From an uncultured Collinsella sp. (GTDB taxonomy: Bacteria > Actinomycetota > Coriobacteriia > Coriobacteriales > Coriobacteriaceae), in NCBI GenBank assembly GCA_902496005.1, contig CABUZI010000001.1, forward strand, positions 1 to 56,855: a DNA stretch of 56,855 nt, given 5' to 3'. Position numbers and translations under genes: made by a program. The notes beneath the pieces were generated by a model. That model searched no databases, had not been told where the DNA came from, and saw only the letters and a list, made by a program, of their open reading frames with translations. Below, in pieces: positions 34,600 to 44,103 of this stretch (position 1 is the stretch's first letter; every line of letters starts with the position of its first letter).

Positions 34600-35163
34600 T
34601 TAAGGCTCTTTTTTGCTCTGCACGCCCTTGGCCCACTCGGCACTGGCTCTCATGGCGTTCTCGAGGGCCTCGCGCAGTTTTTGGTCCTCGATGGGTGCCA
34701 CTTGGTGCTCGATCTCGGCACGCTCGGCATCGCTGAGGTCGGCATGCGGAGCCGGCGGACGCTCGGCCACGGCCGGGCGCAGGCGCTCTTTTGCAGCGGG
34801 CGGTGTGTGGCCGGGGGCGGTCGTCTTGAACACCAGGCCGTCGACGTGCGCGCCGGCGCGCTCCATGCGCGCGCGGATAATCTCGCGCAAAAGTGTCATC
34901 TCCTGCGTCCATGAGGGCGAATCGAGGTACACCAGCAGTTCGTTGGACTCGGGCAGGTAGCGCAACCCCGTCACATGGCGTCCCTCGCGCGTGCCCGAGC
35001 ACACTGCATTCCAGGCGCGATAGACCGCACGAGACTCCTCCGCAGCCTCCATTTGCGCGCGGCGCTCAGGTGTCGCGGCCGCCAGGATGCGTTGGCGCTC
35101 TGCGTTCAAAAAGCCACTGAAGGCGACCGTTTCGCTCTCGCGCTCGTAATTAGCACGTCTCAC
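34600..35163 (-). CDS. DUF721/DciA-family protein (putative helicase-loading factor)
   Basis: Sits between recF and gyrB; W...LLVYLDSPSWTQEMTLLRE.I motif typical of DUF721. Confidence 0.7.
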   Translation of the reverse strand: MRRANYERESETVAFSGFLNAERQRILAAATPERRAQMEAAEESRAVYRAWNAVCSGTREGRHVTGLRYLPESNELLVYLDSPSWTQEMTLLREIIRARMERAGAHVDGLVFKTTAPGHTPPAAKERLRPAVAERPPAPHADLSDAERAEIEHQVAPIEDQKLREALENAMRASAEWAKGVQSKKEP

Positions 35164-36256
35164 CCATGCTCACCACCTTGGCTCGATCAAGCAGGTCATC
35201 GGTAAAATACCCCAGGTTGGTCGTGGTTATGACCGTCTGGATATCATCGCCGATCAGCCGCAGAAAAGCACCGCGGCGCTCGCCGTCGAGTTCGCTCATC
35301 ACGTCGTCCAAAAGCAGCAGTGGGGCGGTGCCCAGGACATCGCGAGCCACGGCCACCTCCGCCACCTTCCAGGCCAGAACCAACGTTCGCTGCTGACCTT
35401 GGCTGGCAAATGAACGGGCGGAGCGACCCGCCACGGTAAACTCAATCTCATCGCGATGCGGTCCCACCAACGTCACGCCGCGGCGAATTTCCTCGTCGGC
35501 GTGCTCATCAAGGGCAGCCAGCATGCGCTCGTACGCCCAGCCCTTCAGTTCTTCGCGATCCTCGACCTGGGGCAAATCCCCCAGCGTGGACGTATAGGTC
35601 ACGTTGGCAGCCTCACCGGATGCCACTTGCCCGTAGGCAGTGTGCACATGGCCCGCCAGCCGGTCGAGCAGGGCCAACCGGTGCACAAGCAGAGCCGAGC
35701 CCGCGCGGGCAATCGAATCGTTCCACGCGCCGAGCATCTCGCGGCAGCACCAGGTCTCCTTGAGCAAGGCGTTACGCTGGGTCACGCAGCGCCCATAGGT
35801 GCTCGCAAGATCGGCATAGCGTGCGCTCAGTTGCATGCCAAAGTCATCGAGGGCAGCGCGGCGCACACTGGCGCCTCGTTTAACCATGTCCAGATGGTCG
35901 GGGCAAAACAGCACGCTCGGCAGAACCCCGCGCACACCGGCGGCAGAACATCTCTTGCCGTTGCGGCTAAACGAGCGCTTACCGTCCTCCGCGTTCAATC
36001 CCATATCAAGCACGCGGCCGTCGCCCTCGAGCCTCAGCTCGACCTTGCACGATCCCACGCCGTCACGGACGAGCTCGGCTGCGGTCGGATGCCTAAACGA
36101 GGCGCCGCTCGTCAGCAGCTGCAGCGCCTCTATGAGATTGGTCTTTCCCGCCGCGTTGGGTCCCGCAAGTATCGTCACGCCCTCGTCCAGGGCAAGACGA
36201 TAGCTATCGAAGCTGCGGTAGTGCGCGACGGAAAGATCGCGGGCGAACATGGTCAT
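35150..36256 (-). CDS. recF: DNA replication and repair protein RecF
   Basis: GPNAAGKTN, GPHRDE, SQGQQR, LLLDDVMSELD. Confidence 0.96.
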   Translation of the reverse strand: MTMFARDLSVAHYRSFDSYRLALDEGVTILAGPNAAGKTNLIEALQLLTSGASFRHPTAAELVRDGVGSCKVELRLEGDGRVLDMGLNAEDGKRSFSRNGKRCSAAGVRGVLPSVLFCPDHLDMVKRGASVRRAALDDFGMQLSARYADLASTYGRCVTQRNALLKETWCCREMLGAWNDSIARAGSALLVHRLALLDRLAGHVHTAYGQVASGEAANVTYTSTLGDLPQVEDREELKGWAYERMLAALDEHADEEIRRGVTLVGPHRDEIEFTVAGRSARSFASQGQQRTLVLAWKVAEVAVARDVLGTAPLLLLDDVMSELDGERRGAFLRLIGDDIQTVITTTNLGYFTDDLLDRAKVVSMGETC

Positions 36257-36265
36257 GGCGCAGCG

Positions 36266-37369
36266 CTAGATGCGGACCGGCATGACCAGGTACAGGTAGT
36301 TGATCTTGTCGTAGGACTTGAAGATGCCCGCCTGCGAGTAGCTCTTGAGCTCCAGCGTGATCTCCTTCTCCTTGGACAGGGCATTGAGGCAGCCGAAGAT
36401 GTAGTGGTAGTTGAAGGCGATGGTGCCCGACTCGCCCTCGGCCTCGACATCGATCGTCTCCTGTGCAAGGTCCTGGTCATTGGAAATGGAGGACAGGCCC
36501 ATCTGCCCGTTCTCGACATCGATCTCGAACTTGACGGCGGGGTTGGCGCTCGCGATAACGGCCACGCGCTTGAGGGCGGCGTTAAAGGCGGCGACGTCGA
36601 TCTTGACGCTCGTCACGCACGAATCGGGGATGAGCTGCTTGTAGTTGGGGTACACGCCCTCGATGCGGCGCGACACGTAGGTGGTGTTGCCGGCCTCAAA
36701 GACGACCTGGGTGTCGGTAGCCCCGATCATGATGGTCGCCCGGCTGGCCATGATGTTCAGCGCGTCGTTAAAGGCGTCGGCCGGAACGTTGAGTTCAAAG
36801 GAACCCTCGAGGGTTGAGGTCTCGACCTGTGTATCGCACACGGCCAAGCGGAAGGAATCGGTCGCCACCAGGCGCACGGTGTTGTTCTCGACCTTCATGT
36901 GCACGCCGCCCAGGATGGGGCGGGCCTTGTCGGTCGAGGTGACGCGCCACACGCGGCCGACCATCTCGGACAAGATATCGGTCGGCAGCTCCACGGCACT
37001 CTCGATGGCATAGGCCGGAAACTCGGGGAAGTCATTGGCATCGAGCGTGTTCAGGCGGAAAGAGCTCTTCTCGCAACCAATCAGCACCTGGCGCTCGGAC
37101 AGCTCAAAGGTGACCGGGGCATCGGGGAGAGTCTTGGTGATATTGGAGAGCATCTTACAGGGGATAACCATCTCGCCCTCTTCTTCGACATGCGCCGCGA
37201 TGCGATGACGGATCGAGATGGTGTAGTTAGAGGTCTGGAATTCCAAGATGCCGTCTTGCGCCTTGACGAGCACGCCCGACAGGATGGGAAGGGTGGATGC
37301 CGAAGCGACACCCTTCATAACGACGCCGATGGCTTGTGTAAGCGAGCTCTGGCTGACGGTGAACTTCAT
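36266..37369 (-). CDS. dnaN: DNA polymerase III beta clamp
   Basis: LPILSG, ATDSFRLA, EGVYPNY, C-terminal LVMPVR. Confidence 0.97.
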   Translation of the reverse strand: MKFTVSQSSLTQAIGVVMKGVASASTLPILSGVLVKAQDGILEFQTSNYTISIRHRIAAHVEEEGEMVIPCKMLSNITKTLPDAPVTFELSERQVLIGCEKSSFRLNTLDANDFPEFPAYAIESAVELPTDILSEMVGRVWRVTSTDKARPILGGVHMKVENNTVRLVATDSFRLAVCDTQVETSTLEGSFELNVPADAFNDALNIMASRATIMIGATDTQVVFEAGNTTYVSRRIEGVYPNYKQLIPDSCVTSVKIDVAAFNAALKRVAVIASANPAVKFEIDVENGQMGLSSISNDQDLAQETIDVEAEGESGTIAFNYHYIFGCLNALSKEKEITLELKSYSQAGIFKSYDKINYLYLVMPVRI

Positions 37370-37607
37370 CTTTTAATACCTTTCTATAGATATAAATATC
37401 TTAATAATAGTAATAGCACTGACGAAACTGTTGATTACTCCCAAAGACGCAGGTCAGACCCAGAAAGAGAATCGACAGCAACCTGTGTGCAACAGGGGTG
37501 GTTTTCCACGTTCAAAACCTGCGCAAAACTTTTCATCACCGCGGATTGGGTTTTAGACACCTTATGCCCGTGGTTTCGACAAGTTTTCAACAGGTGTCTC
37601 TATTTCC
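37370..37607. other. oriC unwinding region (dnaA-dnaN intergenic)
   Basis: AT-rich DUE at 37370-37416; DnaA-trio-like CTATTACTATTATT on the minus strand (37403-37416) next to box TAATCAACA (37429-37437); further boxes at 37484, 37502, 37584; gene orientation flips nearby. Confidence 0.85.
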
Positions 37608-39332
37608 CTACGAGCGCAGTGTAATTTTATCGCGCAGCGACTTGAGGTCTTCGGTGACGGTGCGGTCTTCCTGGATCATCTTCTGGACCTTTTTGTAACT
37701 CGTGCTGACGGTCGAGTGGTTGCGGTTGCCAAATTCGGCGCCTACCGCCGTGGTCGTCATCTCGCACATTTCGATGGCAAGGTAGATAGCGATATGGCGT
37801 GCTTTGGCGATATTGGCGTTGCGACGCGGGCCGATGAGCTCCTCGTGCGTCACGCCGTACTGCTCTTCGATGACGGACTGAACCGTCTGGACGTTGATCT
37901 TTTTGGCCGATGTGTCGAAGTACTGGCTGGCGATGGCGTCGATATCGTCAAAGGTGAGTTCCCCTCCCTCGCGCTCGCGGTCGCCCGCCTCGCCGGCGCA
38001 GCGCTCGCAAAAGCTCTCGAGTTCGCGGATGTTGGTGCCTGAGACCTCGGCCATGTGTTTAAAGTGCTCGTCGGTCAGGTGCCCGCCGTCGCCCCCATAG
38101 GCCGCCAGCAGCGAGTCGTCGCCTGCCTCGGGAGCGGCGACGATGGTGTTCTCGTAATAGCGCTGCAAGATCTTGTATTTCATCTCGTAGCTGGGCTCTG
38201 CGACCAGGCAGAGCATGCCGGCGTTGAAGCGGCTGGTCAGACGCTCGTCCATGCTCAGGTCCTTGGGAGCGCGGTCTGCCGCGATAACGACCTTCTTGTT
38301 ATTGCGGATGAACTCGTCCATGAGCTGGAAAAAGTAGTCCACGCTCGCGCGCTTGCCGATGATGTTTTGGATGTCATCGATGATGAGCACGTCCACGCCG
38401 TGGTACGCCTGCATGATGGGGGCGTTGCTCTTCTTTTGGCGGTCGAACTCGGTCATCAGGTCGTCCAGATATGCCTGGGAGTTGGCATACTTGACCTTGA
38501 TCTCGGGCGACTTCTCGGCGAGCTCGTTTTTGATGGCAAGCAGCAGGTGCGTCTTGCCCAGGCCCGATTTGCCGTAGATGAACAGCGATGTGCACGTGCC
38601 GCGCTCGTCCGCGAGGGCGGCAAACTTGAGTGCCGAGCGATAGGCATGGCTGTTCTCGGGGCCGTAGACAAAGTTCTCAAAGGTAAATTTTGAGTTCGCG
38701 GCGAGCGGGGCTCCATCCGTATTCTGCTCGGCCGGCACGGTCGGTGCTGGCATGGGTGAAGCGGGGGTCGCAGCTTGCGTGGATTTAGTTGGCGCTCCGC
38801 CCTTCATCTGGTTCATCATGCGACGAAAATCATCGGCCGAGAGCGTGTTTTTGATTGCAATGCCCGAATCCGCGCCCGCCGCTGCGTCGTGAGCGATGGG
38901 CATGTGCGTGACGGGTGCGTTCGTTGACGTCGCCGCCGCGGTTGGCAACGGTGCCATGGTTTCACGGGAAACATCGCTGTGCTGGTGCTCGATTGTCGGC
39001 ACGTCGCCTGCGGAGGCCGGTGCCGCCGGGGAAGCGGCGGGAGCCGTGGCGGGCGCCGTCGCGGCAGCGGATTCCGTTGCGGCGCCTTGCGGTGCCACGA
39101 TGTCGAGCGCGATCGGTGCAAAGGCGATTTCTTCCAGATAGGCCTCAATAGTCGGCTGATGCTTTTTGAGCTGCGCGATGGCAAAGCGCGAGGGGGCCTC
39201 GATCGTGAGCGTATCTTCGGTCAGGCTTATGGCGCGCGATTGCCCCAGCATGTTGATGAGGCGTGCATCTTGGCCGTCGCGCTGGCAAAAGGCGATGGCG
39301 TCCCCCAGGATGATGCTTGCTTCCTCGTCCAC
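37608..39332 (-). CDS. dnaA: chromosomal replication initiator DnaA
   Basis: FTFENFV, YGKSGLGKTHL, LIIDDIQ, RLTSRF, NIRELE, domain IV; long Ala/Pro-rich domain II. Confidence 0.96.
   Translation of the reverse strand: MDEEASIILGDAIAFCQRDGQDARLINMLGQSRAISLTEDTLTIEAPSRFAIAQLKKHQPTIEAYLEEIAFAPIALDIVAPQGAATESAAATAPATAPAASPAAPASAGDVPTIEHQHSDVSRETMAPLPTAAATSTNAPVTHMPIAHDAAAGADSGIAIKNTLSADDFRRMMNQMKGGAPTKSTQAATPASPMPAPTVPAEQNTDGAPLAANSKFTFENFVYGPENSHAYRSALKFAALADERGTCTSLFIYGKSGLGKTHLLLAIKNELAEKSPEIKVKYANSQAYLDDLMTEFDRQKKSNAPIMQAYHGVDVLIIDDIQNIIGKRASVDYFFQLMDEFIRNNKKVVIAADRAPKDLSMDERLTSRFNAGMLCLVAEPSYEMKYKILQRYYENTIVAAPEAGDDSLLAAYGGDGGHLTDEHFKHMAEVSGTNIRELESFCERCAGEAGDREREGGELTFDDIDAIASQYFDTSAKKINVQTVQSVIEEQYGVTHEELIGPRRNANIAKARHIAIYLAIEMCEMTTTAVGAEFGNRNHSTVSTSYKKVQKMIQEDRTVTEDLKSLRDKITLRS
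38958..38973. promoter_or_regulatory. parS-like site inside dnaA
   Basis: GGTTTCACGGGAAACA, 14/16 match to TGTTTCACGTGAAACA. Confidence 0.65.
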
Positions 39333-39347
39333 TGTTTCTCCCGTTCT

Positions 39348-40700
39348 TTAGCTCTGAGCTCGCACGCGAGCGGCGCCGAGTTCGGTCAGATGGTATTTCT
39401 GGCCATGCTTGATGACCAAGCCAGCCTGCGCCAAGTCATTGAGCGTGCGTGACCAAGTGGGGGCCGAGTTTCCAAACGCCCTCGCCAGATCGGTTGCACC
39501 GCACGCTTGATTTTGCGCCAAATAGCCTAGTGCGGCGTTGCCGCGATCGCTTACGAACACGTCCGGTTGTGGCTGCGCATACTGATTTGCTGCATTAGGA
39601 TACATCATTTGAGCTGCTGGTTGTTGAGAACTCTGCATCGGCGGCACTTGCTGTTGAAAACTTTGAGGCCACTGTTGGTAAGGCTGCGGAGGCATCTGCT
39701 GGGCCCAGGGGTTGTACTGCTGCTGCGGCATCTGCTGGTACGGCTGCTGATATCCCTGCTGGTACTGCTGCGGGAACTGCTGGCCGTACCCCAGCGGCGG
39801 CATCTGTTGATATGGATATCCCTGTTGGTACGGCTGATAGCCCATTTGCTGGCCACCCGGTGCGCCCGTCGCCTGCTGCATTGCTGCCGCATCCTGATCC
39901 GCCAGCGGCACGGCCTCTGGCATGTTTGGCGGCATCGACATCGATGTCGCCTGGGGCTCTTGTGTGGGAAGCATTCCGGGCTGCTGCATCTGCCTCACGG
40001 GGGGCTGCATCTGCTGCGTTGCCATGGGCTGCTGCGCAAAAGCTCCCGGCAGGGGATATGTGGGCTGCTCCGTCTCGGGCCGCACGGCAGCACCGCGCCC
40101 GCCGGCACGCTCGATTTCCTGCACTCGTTTAGGGTTCAGGCTTACCGTAACCACGGTGCCGTTGCCCATGTTGTCCTCGATGGATACGGCACCGCCGGCG
40201 TTTTCCAAATACTCCTGCACCATGGGAAACCCCGCTCCGGTTCCACGGATATAGCGCTTCATCTTGCTGTTTGCGCTGGTAACGCCAAAGTCGAAAGCGC
40301 GTTCCTTGTCGTCGATGCCGGGTCCTTGATCAGCAAAGCGGATGGTGTCTCCGCCGTCCAGAATCGAGATGATGGGCTCGGCAAAGTGTGCGTGGATAAA
40401 GTTTTCGACAATCTCGCGGATGACCATGAGCGAGATATGGCCACCTTGTTCTTTCATGCACTGGTAGACGGTGTTGGTAGTCTCTTCCAAATACGTGCGG
40501 ACATCTTGCGGATCAATGACGATCACACGCGGTGTCGACAGCATGTCGTCATAGACGGCGATACGCGCGGCGTACATGGCTTTTGGCGCCTGCGTGGTCG
40601 TCTGCTCGCCTTCCGCACGCTCTTCGCGCACGCCGGTGATGTGCTCGTTGTCGGGTGCCGGGTCTCCAGAATCGACCATGGTGTAAAAGTCATCAGACAT
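39348..40700 (-). CDS. GHKL (HATPase_c) ATPase - Gln/Pro-rich linker - winged-HTH protein
   Basis: N-box EIVENFIHA, G1 DQGPGI, G2 RGTGAGF, GTVVTV; C-terminal GATDLARAFG.S..TWSRTLNDL..AGLV...YHLT. Confidence 0.8.
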   Translation of the reverse strand: MSDDFYTMVDSGDPAPDNEHITGVREERAEGEQTTTQAPKAMYAARIAVYDDMLSTPRVIVIDPQDVRTYLEETTNTVYQCMKEQGGHISLMVIREIVENFIHAHFAEPIISILDGGDTIRFADQGPGIDDKERAFDFGVTSANSKMKRYIRGTGAGFPMVQEYLENAGGAVSIEDNMGNGTVVTVSLNPKRVQEIERAGGRGAAVRPETEQPTYPLPGAFAQQPMATQQMQPPVRQMQQPGMLPTQEPQATSMSMPPNMPEAVPLADQDAAAMQQATGAPGGQQMGYQPYQQGYPYQQMPPLGYGQQFPQQYQQGYQQPYQQMPQQQYNPWAQQMPPQPYQQWPQSFQQQVPPMQSSQQPAAQMMYPNAANQYAQPQPDVFVSDRGNAALGYLAQNQACGATDLARAFGNSAPTWSRTLNDLAQAGLVIKHGQKYHLTELGAARVRAQS

Positions 40701-40719
40701 GCCGCTCGCAATCTTCCAA

Positions 40720-40870
40720 AAGGTTTCGAACAAATAGTAGCTCACCGCGCAATGTTTCTCATCTTTCGACAACTTTTCAAAACCTGTTGAAAACTTTGGA
40801 AAACGGGCGAAAAGTTCTCAACATTGCCAACATGACCTGTTGAAAACTCGATGAAATATCGTGAAAAGTT
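40720..40870. promoter_or_regulatory. upstream DnaA-box cluster
   Basis: TTTCGAACA 40724, TGTTGAAAA 40785 and 40838, TTCTCAACA 40815, TTGCCAACA 40824. Confidence 0.65.
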
Positions 40871-40943
40871 GTCATGCACCGCTAAATCGAGCTTGGCTTA
40901 TGGGGGAACCGTGTGAACTGCGCAACCTTTTACCTTTGATTTC

Positions 40944-40973
40944 TTGACATTTGAACATTGATTTCCCTACAAT
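40944..40973 (+). promoter_or_regulatory. rpmH promoter
   Basis: TTGACA-18 nt-TACAAT. Confidence 0.7.
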
Positions 40974-41045
40974 CTTCAAGCTCACGTGTCTATATCTGCG
41001 TCCGCGTCCCCGCGGACACTCGAAATGCAGCAGGAGGAACTTAAG

Positions 41046-41180
41046 ATGAAGCGTACGTATCAGCCTAATAAGCGTAAGCGTGCCAAGACCCATGGCTTCC
41101 GTGCCCGTATGGCCACTAAGGGTGGTCGTGCCGTGCTCGCCCGTCGTCGCGCCAAGGGCCGCAAGCGTCTCACTGTCTAG
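41046..41180 (+). CDS. rpmH: 50S ribosomal protein L34
   Basis: [22 protein letters not shown]. Confidence 0.98.
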
Positions 41181-41200
41181 CAGCGATACACACATCTCGC

Positions 41201-41539
41201 ATGAAGACTATTAAGTCTCGGCAAGATTTCGAGCATGTGTTCAGTCAGGGGCGTCGTTTCAATCACCCTCTGATTCGAATGACCATATGTGAATCGGTTG
41301 GCGAAGGCGACTCCGGAAGGGTCGCCTTCGTTGGTGCTAAGCGACTCGGTTGTGCCGTCGTGCGCAACCGATCTAAGCGTGTGATGCGCGAGGCCGCCCG
41401 CAGCTGCGGATTTCCCGTTGCGGGTTATGACATCATCTTGTTTGCAACTCCCAAGACTAGGGTTTCCTCGCCGCAGGAGATGGACAAGGCGTTGCGTTCG
41501 CTTATGAAGCGCGCCGGCGTTGCCGGGGAGGAGCGATGA
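41201..41539 (+). CDS. rnpA: ribonuclease P protein component
   Basis: [18 protein letters not shown] (RNR motif); synteny. Confidence 0.93.
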
Positions 41540-44009: not shown

Positions 44010-44103
44010 TGTTTCACGTGAAACATAATGGATACTAACAACTTGCAGTGTTTCACGTGAAACATGGCGGTTGATATCGATTCGGAATGTTTCACGTGAA
44101 ACA
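44010..44103. promoter_or_regulatory. three perfect parS sites (44010, 44049, 44088)
   Basis: TGTTTCACGTGAAACA three times, immediately upstream of parA. Confidence 0.95.

Follow-up and report, generated by a model that had tools for sequence, protein, structure and literature searches.

The catalytic (CA, HATPase_c) domains of histidine kinases (HKs), such as those of KinB (3d36), HK853, and ThkA (3a0t), share the Bergerat fold and its N, G1, F-like, G2, and G3 motifs; the same ATP-binding fold is found in the GHL clamp ATPases (GyrB, MutL, Hsp90, and MORC), which an excerpt of PMC1616964 describes as nucleotide-controlled clamps. In Csa3, an N-terminal nucleotide-binding CARF domain is followed by a linker and a C-terminal winged helix-turn-helix (wHTH). 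At the chromosomal origin, modulation of DnaA or oriC by small DNA- or DnaA-binding proteins is represented by YabA, SirA, Soj, DiaA/HobA, and Hda, and by the origin-binding response regulators MtrA, HP1021, CtrA, and Spo0A. To our knowledge, none of the known DnaA or origin regulators is a GHKL protein. Here, we describe a gene immediately upstream of dnaA that couples a GHKL-type ATP-binding domain to a wHTH. It lies in a 56,855-nt stretch of DNA from an uncultured Collinsella sp. (contig CABUZI010000001.1 of assembly GCA_902496005.1), hereafter the window, and its 450-aa product (window 39348–40700, minus strand) is here called X. The combination of an ATP site without a phospho-acceptor domain, a conserved wHTH, single-copy occurrence, and a retained place in the dnaA operon points to a regulator; we give roughly even credence to the proposal that X, produced along with DnaA, is a nucleotide-dependent DNA-binding protein whose site of action is dnaA or oriC. 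That X binds ATP and DNA, what it targets, and any effect on initiation are inferred, the last of these from the position of the gene.

The N-terminal core of X is of the HK catalytic-domain type and carries the N, G1, F-like, G2, and G3 motifs. Pfam HATPase_c matches X at E 1.1e-10 (42.3 bits against a cut-off of 26.4) and also matches 48/48 orthologs, in which N100, H103, A104, D124, G126, G128, G153, G155, G157, and G181 are invariant; these residues include the N-box Asn (N100), the G1 motif DxGxG (D124/G126/G128), and the G2 motif GxGxG (G153/G155/G157). E96, four residues before the N-box Asn, is kept in at least 90% of the orthologs; a Glu at this position is a feature of hydrolyzing and kinase-active GHKL proteins. 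The closest solved relative by sequence is the KinB catalytic domain (9.4e-6), MutL N-terminal domains match the N-box/G1 region (E 1e-3), and NCBIfam models returned only low-scoring tails of kinase models. In an AlphaFold2 (AF2) model built on the alignment of the 48 orthologs, residues 40–200 are confidently predicted (predicted local distance difference test, pLDDT, >90) as an alpha/beta sandwich, with Z-scores of 10.5–12.5 to GHKL domains, among them the ThkA CA domain (10.6); the top Foldseek match of this domain is HK853 (E 1.5e-5). A conserved strand, ARIAVYDD..PRV, precedes the core, and the stretch ahead of the core, only about 45 residues long, is modeled as two strands. At its extreme N-terminus, X of Collinsella has the short motif DDFY, where (M/V)(K/R)xF(Y/F) is the form seen in most Coriobacteriia. 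A second AF2 model, of a short X ortholog, reached a predicted template modeling score (pTM) of 0.61, with two confident domains whose arrangement is not fixed.

These features separate X from each of the systems above. As compared with HK catalytic domains, X has no DHp/HisKA domain, conserved phospho-acceptor His, sensor, or membrane part, and is instead fused to a wHTH. At E ≤ 1, the Pfam matches of X include none of the HisKA, sensor, or receiver families, and H103 of the N-box is the sole conserved His among the orthologs. An earlier note, made from the letters of the window, had described the N, G1, and G2 boxes as intact and found no HisKA or sensor domain, and both statements hold. A two-component sensor histidine kinase was rejected on the missing DHp/HisKA domain together with the lack of a response regulator gene near X, where the neighbors are rpmH, dnaA, dnaN, recF, dciA, and gyrBA. 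X likewise lacks the transducer or S5 domain of the GHL clamps, and ATP-driven dimerization of X would be hypothetical. The best structural match of the N-terminal domain is DIP2311 of Corynebacterium diphtheriae (3lmm), a structural genomics entry of unassigned function (Z 12.5; root-mean-square deviation, rmsd, 2.9 Å over 152 residues; X model residues 36–191 against residues 224–410 of the chain). Identity to X is 14%, and DIP2311 comprises some 490 residues with further domains; it is not known to lie at the dnaA locus, and a literature search found nothing on its function. We take DIP2311 to carry HTH domains as well and to belong to the AlbA_2/HATPase_c_4 group; neither X nor any of its 48 orthologs matched HATPase_c_4 or AlbA_2 in Pfam.

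The C-terminal wHTH proposed in the earlier note is borne out by the AF2 model (pLDDT ~95) and by its structural matches, to MarR-type domains (Z 11–12.4, rmsd 1.2–2.0 over ~70 residues) and to Csa3 (6wxq, Z 11.3). By sequence, HVO_A0261_N, MarR_2, and HTH_IclR match residues ~385–445 below their Pfam cut-offs (MarR_2, 21.6 bits against 27; MarR, 16.1 against 24.6), and wHTH families of Pfam match 27–38 of the 48 orthologs. The recognition-helix motif STAYRDL is kept in orthologs across classes, and the wider ortholog motif reads L-S-x-R-Q-x-x-V-L...G-P-S...S-T-A-Y-R-D-L...G-K-R-x-L-T. Membership in the MarR family was rejected; the wHTH core fits, but the profile scores fall below cut-off and the dimerization helices are missing. 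X resembles Csa3 in the order of its parts (the predicted nucleotide-binding domain first, then a linker, and the wHTH at the C-terminus), though its sensor domain is GHKL rather than CARF and it has no CRISPR context. A defense-system reading was also discarded, as the PADLOC Csa3/CasR models match the wHTH alone.

The place of the gene is conserved well beyond Collinsella. Genome searches covered Actinomycetota. With the whole X protein as query (E ≤ 1e-10), matches were found in 26 of 31 relatives' genomes in the order (G000 included); dnaA is the next gene on the same strand in all 26, and rpmH lies upstream wherever the stored flank reaches. When 151 Coriobacteriia genomes were searched with a profile of 147 positions of the X core, 144 gave a match at E ≤ 1e-5; 139 of these matches lie at E ≤ 3.4e-34, and five are weak and kinase-like. 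In 20 loci drawn from 15 other Coriobacteriia families, X is followed by dnaA and dnaN without exception, with rpmH upstream in 19; the remaining locus begins at a contig end. In a phylum-level draw of 301 Actinomycetota genomes (278 outside Coriobacteriia), the profile matched 105 at E ≤ 1e-8, including 80 of the 278 at E ≤ 1.4e-12, and the counts in some families were 21/22, 20/20, 9/10, 7/9, 4/4, 4/4, and 3/3 genomes. X lies between rpmH and dnaA in all of 20 loci from 10 X-positive families outside the class; dnaA is seen downstream in 18, and the other two stop after X at the contig end of a circular chromosome. The earlier note had treated the gene as a lineage-specific insertion and named a position not conserved in relatives as grounds for abandoning its reading. 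The arrangement, with rpmH divergent from X and X followed by dnaA and dnaN, is instead kept among relatives (26/26 genomes, and 20/20 and 18/20 loci), and outside Coriobacteriia X fills the same slot in no fewer than 10 other families of Actinomycetota.

X is the single match per genome at E ≤ 1e-8, apart from two HK-like matches (E ~7e-9), and in the 66 genomes checked it was found solely at the dnaA slot. Against 1.84 billion representative proteins, the core profile returned 322 clusters at E ≤ 1e-30, 463 at ≤1e-10, and 2605 at ≤1e-3; the last figure indicates a small family, well separated from ordinary kinases. Databases name these proteins "ATP-binding protein" through automatic cluster names. 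Methylomirabilota is named in one protein-cluster row for the family, with two members, and is a lead only. In one locus (L181, genome G296), rpmH and X stand 3.9 kb apart, with 24 DnaA-box-like sites in between; this spacing suggests that DNA was inserted between rpmH and the DnaA-box cluster.

X ends 15 bp 5′ of the dnaA start on the same strand, as the earlier note had it: the stop codon is TAA at 39348–39350 and dnaA begins with GTG at 39332. Among orthologs, the distance from X stop to dnaA start runs from a few to ~30 nt, with 4-nt overlaps in three loci. Translation of X begins at the ATG at 40700; the N-terminus M-x-DDFYPFVDSG is kept in other genera. A longer form beginning at TTG 40772 was considered and excluded, because in most same-genus loci a stop stands five codons 5′ of the ATG and the open frame is just 455 aa.

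Transcription data fit the earlier proposal that X and dnaA are co-transcribed. Two stranded raw-read RNA sequencing (RNA-seq) runs from a related strain, 95–100% alike, were mapped to window positions 37300–41300; strand was called from the rpmH reads, which are "first mate on −," so that "first mate on +" denotes minus-strand RNA. In both runs, sense coverage is unbroken from ~40.71 kb across X into dnaA and dnaN, there is no dip at the junction of X and dnaA (Table 1), and a terminator scan of the minus strand found no terminator-like site between the two. At 40709, 5′ ends form a small pile, and sense depth climbs between 40783 and 40650; this rise, together with the absence of a dip at the junction, indicates that transcription begins just 5′ of X and reads through into dnaA. 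Contigs of older RNA runs cover X and dnaA too, but cannot show a single transcript. Sense depth falls over the linker (39578–39979), most simply because of strain difference there. One run also shows a pile of 5′ ends at 39565, inside X (37/112 molecules), adjacent to the stretch of falling depth and 85–95 nt downstream of the GTTTTCAACAGC box at 39650–39661 within the linker codons. This pile possibly marks a promoter of dnaA within X, RNA processing, or the clipping of reads where the sequence diverges; inspection by eye found no convincing −10/−35 for these ends, and an additional dnaA start inside X is possible.

The architecture of the origin resembles that of Bacillus subtilis, in which the order is rpmH, incAB boxes, dnaA, incC with the unwinding system, and dnaN, with a box cluster 5′ of dnaA and trios and AT-rich sequence in the dnaA–dnaN spacer. 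Here as there, both parts are present; in contrast to B. subtilis, the protein-coding X gene stands between the upstream boxes and dnaA and is transcribed with dnaA. Scanning for TTWTNCACA with at most one mismatch places 15 of the 41 DnaA-box-like sites of the window within 37200–41100; the dnaA–dnaN spacer holds five, the stretch just 5′ of X three to four, and X itself another five, one of them at 40680. The upstream cluster sits just 5′ of the sense transcription start and overlaps the X promoter region. Matches to the 12-mer GTTTTCAACAGG at up to two mismatches number seven as against 2.7 expected, a count that none of 100 shuffles reached. The earlier statement that X separates dnaA from an upstream DnaA-box cluster is upheld, in the manner of a bipartite origin. 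The same note placed X inside the origin; if by this the unwinding site is meant, the claim fails, since a box, trio-like repeats, and an AT-rich stretch lie together in the dnaA–dnaN spacer. Unwinding is expected there, in what is probably the unwinding region on these sequence features, and X lies outside it. A box followed by DnaA-trios constitutes the "basal unwinding system" (BUS) of B. subtilis, which according to PMC10721633 is widespread.

The layout recurs in orthologous loci. Across 47 rpmH–X intervals there are 333 box-like sites, with 4–14 in most loci and 1–3 in six, as against a density of 0.7 per kb over the entire window; the dnaA–dnaN spacers hold 2–7 (18–19 in one family), and X itself usually 0–2. 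Among the k-mers shared 5′ of X, plain DnaA boxes are the most frequent (TGTGGAAAA in 34/47 loci and TGTGGATAA in 28/47), and k-mers of the TAGTAATAG type recur in 9–15 of 37 dnaA–dnaN spacers. At box position 3 of the orthologous loci, T is preferred upstream of X (TTTTCCACA, 56%) and A between dnaA and dnaN (TTATCCACA, 60%). Two facing box-like sites at 40391–40410 of the window, TTATCCACG and TTTTCGACA, fall within and next to the codons for ENFIHA, the invariant motif of the N-box, and are probably a by-product of that amino-acid motif, most orthologs having 0–2 boxes in the gene.

Under the proposal of a regulator made with DnaA, the wHTH of X would bind DNA, and the GHKL domain, on binding or hydrolyzing ATP, would alter the oligomeric or conformational state of X and hence its DNA binding. 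Such a mode would resemble that of sensor-domain-plus-wHTH regulators (Csa3) or of ATP-dependent GHKL clamps, without membership in either group. X is probably translationally coupled to dnaA on the same message, and this arrangement suggests that X may act in cis on the DnaA-box-rich dnaA promoter/origin region, or on DnaA assembly there. There is precedent for such a gene: Rv0004/DciA, likewise encoded at the dnaA locus and once uncharacterized, turned out to be an essential replication factor, according to an excerpt of PMC5720831. Pfam and NCBIfam scans returned no homology of X to known DnaA or oriC regulators (YabA, SirA, DiaA/HobA, Hda, Soj, and DnaD, among others), and X is not related in fold to these regulators or to MtrA, HP1021, CtrA, and Spo0A. 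A complex prediction pairing a short X ortholog (283 aa) with its own DnaA (460 aa), with an alignment for each, scored 0.10 against a mark of 0.32 and weighs neither way.

Several observations count against this proposal. The wHTH lacks the flanking MarR dimerization helices; the structural match comprises the central 70 of 130–150 residues, and X ends there. A search of the 47 rpmH–X intervals with DnaA boxes masked did not find a second conserved motif that could serve as an X operator; the masked intervals yielded just k-mers that were GC-rich or resembled ribosome-binding sites, with counts like those of shuffled controls, and box flanks are weakly conserved. X is missing from whole large families in the phylum draw (0/20, 0/21, 0/21, and 0/16 genomes), and two further families gave 0/12 and 0/10. 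Within Coriobacteriia, genomes G129 and G038 have an assembled dnaA locus and no trace of X in the rpmH–dnaA interval of 0.7–0.9 kb. G067 has a different region upstream of dnaA, and two further X-negative genomes have no dnaA in the assembly either. The absence from some lineages indicates that X is dispensable there. Finally, gene order in the origin region is frozen even for genes without a role in replication (rnpA, yidC, jag, and rsmG), so that synteny alone is weak evidence for such a role.

The same frozen order, in which rnpA, yidD, yidC, jag, and rsmG are kept in place without acting in replication, underlies the strongest of the alternatives: that X works as an ordinary transcription factor or nucleotide sensor on targets away from the origin, its slot 5′ of dnaA reflecting inherited order and no functional tie to replication. 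The loss of X in lineages that retain dnaA and the lack of an X-specific motif at the 47 upstream intervals both speak for this view. However, tight or overlapping stop–start junctions between X and dnaA persist across classes, X is always single-copy and confined to this slot, and it always lies 3′ of the DnaA-box cluster, so that its expression is tied to that of dnaA. We consider this alternative somewhat unlikely, though it is the one to be taken most seriously.

A SpoIIAB/RsbW-type protein kinase or partner switch, phosphorylating or sequestering DnaA or another protein while the wHTH merely places X on DNA, appears distinctly improbable. The fold is shared (1l0o, Z 10.5, 126 residues aligned), the N-4 Glu is widely kept, and the missing DHp domain sets X apart from a classical histidine kinase. 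This likeness is one of fold only; the HATPase_c_2 (SpoIIAB/RsbW-type) profile matches 1/48 orthologs, at E 0.0087, no STAS antagonist or sigma factor gene occurs around X in the window, and the closest sequence relatives of X are HK catalytic domains.

Between the two domains, X carries the Q/P/M/Y-rich stretch described in the earlier note (28% Q, 18% P, and 79% Q/P/M/Y/G/A, with 5.6% charged residues). A 12-nt DNA repeat occurs within the linker codons at 39714–39782. In a set of 120 close homologs the linker measures 152 to 206 aa, and long Q/P-rich linkers occur solely in Collinsella and a few genera close to it; typical X orthologs are 250–320 aa long and consist of the core, 30–50 linker residues of ordinary composition, and the wHTH. 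In the ortholog at L028 (genome G020), a Q/P/A-rich low-complexity region of ~230 aa is N-terminal and the linker is short, which indicates that low-complexity sequence expanded repeatedly in this family, not always at one position. Being absent or variable across orthologs, the linker is not part of the conserved mechanism, and the suggestion that it drives condensates at the origin and is central to X function, for which its composition, few charges, and predicted disorder would speak, is very improbable given that most orthologs lack it, that its length drifts among close homologs, and that one genus has its low-complexity stretch elsewhere. Among 87 distinct Collinsella alleles, from strains that are very close, no local dip in synonymous diversity was found at the conserved linker end, which holds the DnaA box at 39652 and the possible internal promoter. 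In one complete genome (G026; L025 1220–1470), X stops after 195 aa at an A run and the wHTH continues in another frame; the break is either a frameshift or an assembly error.

A bolder version of the regulator proposal is that X is an ancestral actinobacterial, ATP-switched regulator of initiation, stoichiometric with DnaA, which would bind the bipartite origin or dnaA promoter, gate DnaA assembly or dnaA transcription by its nucleotide state, and have been lost later in large-genome families. We put this forward tentatively, as an unlikely elaboration. DnaA control is understood in few model bacteria. According to an excerpt of PMC5720831, mycobacteria have no known DnaA regulators, and in Actinomycetota homologs of the established ones have not been identified. 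If the ancestral-regulator version were true, X would make up for the YabA, SirA, Hda, and DiaA-type regulators that Actinomycetota lack, and initiation of bacterial replication would have its first regulator of the GHKL type. An ATP-binding and a DNA-binding module together, as predicted here from sequence and model, would provide the logic expected of a switch. X combines known kinds of element, namely GHKL domain fusions and origin-linked regulators, in a protein of predicted function. A full-text literature search outside the subscription journals turned up no account of a gene in the rpmH–dnaA interval of these bacteria, nor of a GHKL-wHTH protein tied to dnaA. Single-copy and kept in the dnaA operon behind a DnaA-box cluster across several classes, X is a concrete, directly testable candidate, and it occurs in abundant human gut genera, Collinsella among them. 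Even if unrelated to replication, it defines a compact, uncharacterized GHKL-wHTH family of ~320 clusters at 50% identity.

Table 1. Features of the X–dnaA region and RNA-seq sense depth, in window coordinates (depth as run 1 / run 2 where two values are given).
Feature	Position	Strand	Content or basis
X, 450 aa + stop	39348..40700	−	First gene of the X–dnaA–dnaN transcription unit; open reading frame, conserved N-terminus, sense RNA-seq
N-terminal short motif MSDDFYTMVDSG	40665..40700	−	Followed by variable spacer; low pLDDT; upstream segments of orthologs
GHKL/Bergerat ATP-binding core, residues 43–189	40134..40574	−	HK catalytic-domain type; HATPase_c match, invariant residues, pLDDT >90
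Q/P/M/Y-rich disordered linker, residues 201–380 (180 aa)	39561..40100	−	Composition; pLDDT <55
Winged helix-turn-helix, residues 381–450	39351..39560	−	AF2 pLDDT ~95; structural matches; recognition-helix motif
X–dnaA spacer, 15 nt	39333..39347	−	Carries GGGAG; no terminator in terminator scan
Upstream DnaA-box cluster	40774..40846	.	TTTTCAACA at 40785 and 40838, TTTTCCAAA at 40795, TTTTCAAAA at 40774
rpmH	41046..41180	+	Divergent neighbor; promoter-like site 40944–40973; RNA 5′ ends 40994/40995
dnaA, 574 aa	37608..39332	−	Pfam Bac_DnaA 1e-41, Bac_DnaA_C 8.4e-21; GTG start
dnaA–dnaN spacer, probable unwinding region	37370..37607	.	5 DnaA-box-like sites at 37486–37592
Box TAATCAACA	37429–37437		In dnaA–dnaN spacer
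Trio-like TAA/TAG repeats TAATAATAGTAATAG	37402–37416	+	Between box 37429–37437 and AT-rich stretch
AT-rich stretch, 30 nt	37371–37400		Ends at dnaN ATG
dnaN	36266–37369	−	Downstream of dnaA
recF	35150–36256	−	Downstream of dnaN
Sense depth	40784–40917	−	15 / 6
Sense depth	40650–40783	−	34 / 25
Sense depth, N-terminal half of X		−	70–120
Sense depth, junction bin	39310–39443	−	205 / 208
Sense depth, dnaA		−	100–220
Sense depth, dnaA–dnaN spacer		−	157 / 121

The genes around X follow a familiar plan. From 41046 on, rnpA, yidD, yidC, jag, and rsmG run with rpmH, opposite to X; in the other direction, recF is followed by dciA, gyrB, and gyrA. The DciA-family gene lies at window positions 34600–35163 (E 2.7e-6); its place between recF and gyrB is the usual actinobacterial arrangement. 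Antisense reads over dnaA at 37700–38000 reach 20–70% of sense depth, with molecule ends at 37964 (29/86, one run), and are possibly antisense RNA or a sign of imperfect strandedness. Directly after rsmG, at 44010–44103, stand three perfect copies of the parS consensus TGTTTCACGTGAAACA, 39 bp apart, as against 0.02 expected by chance. The three copies also give rise to a spurious open reading frame with a repeated MFHVKH.

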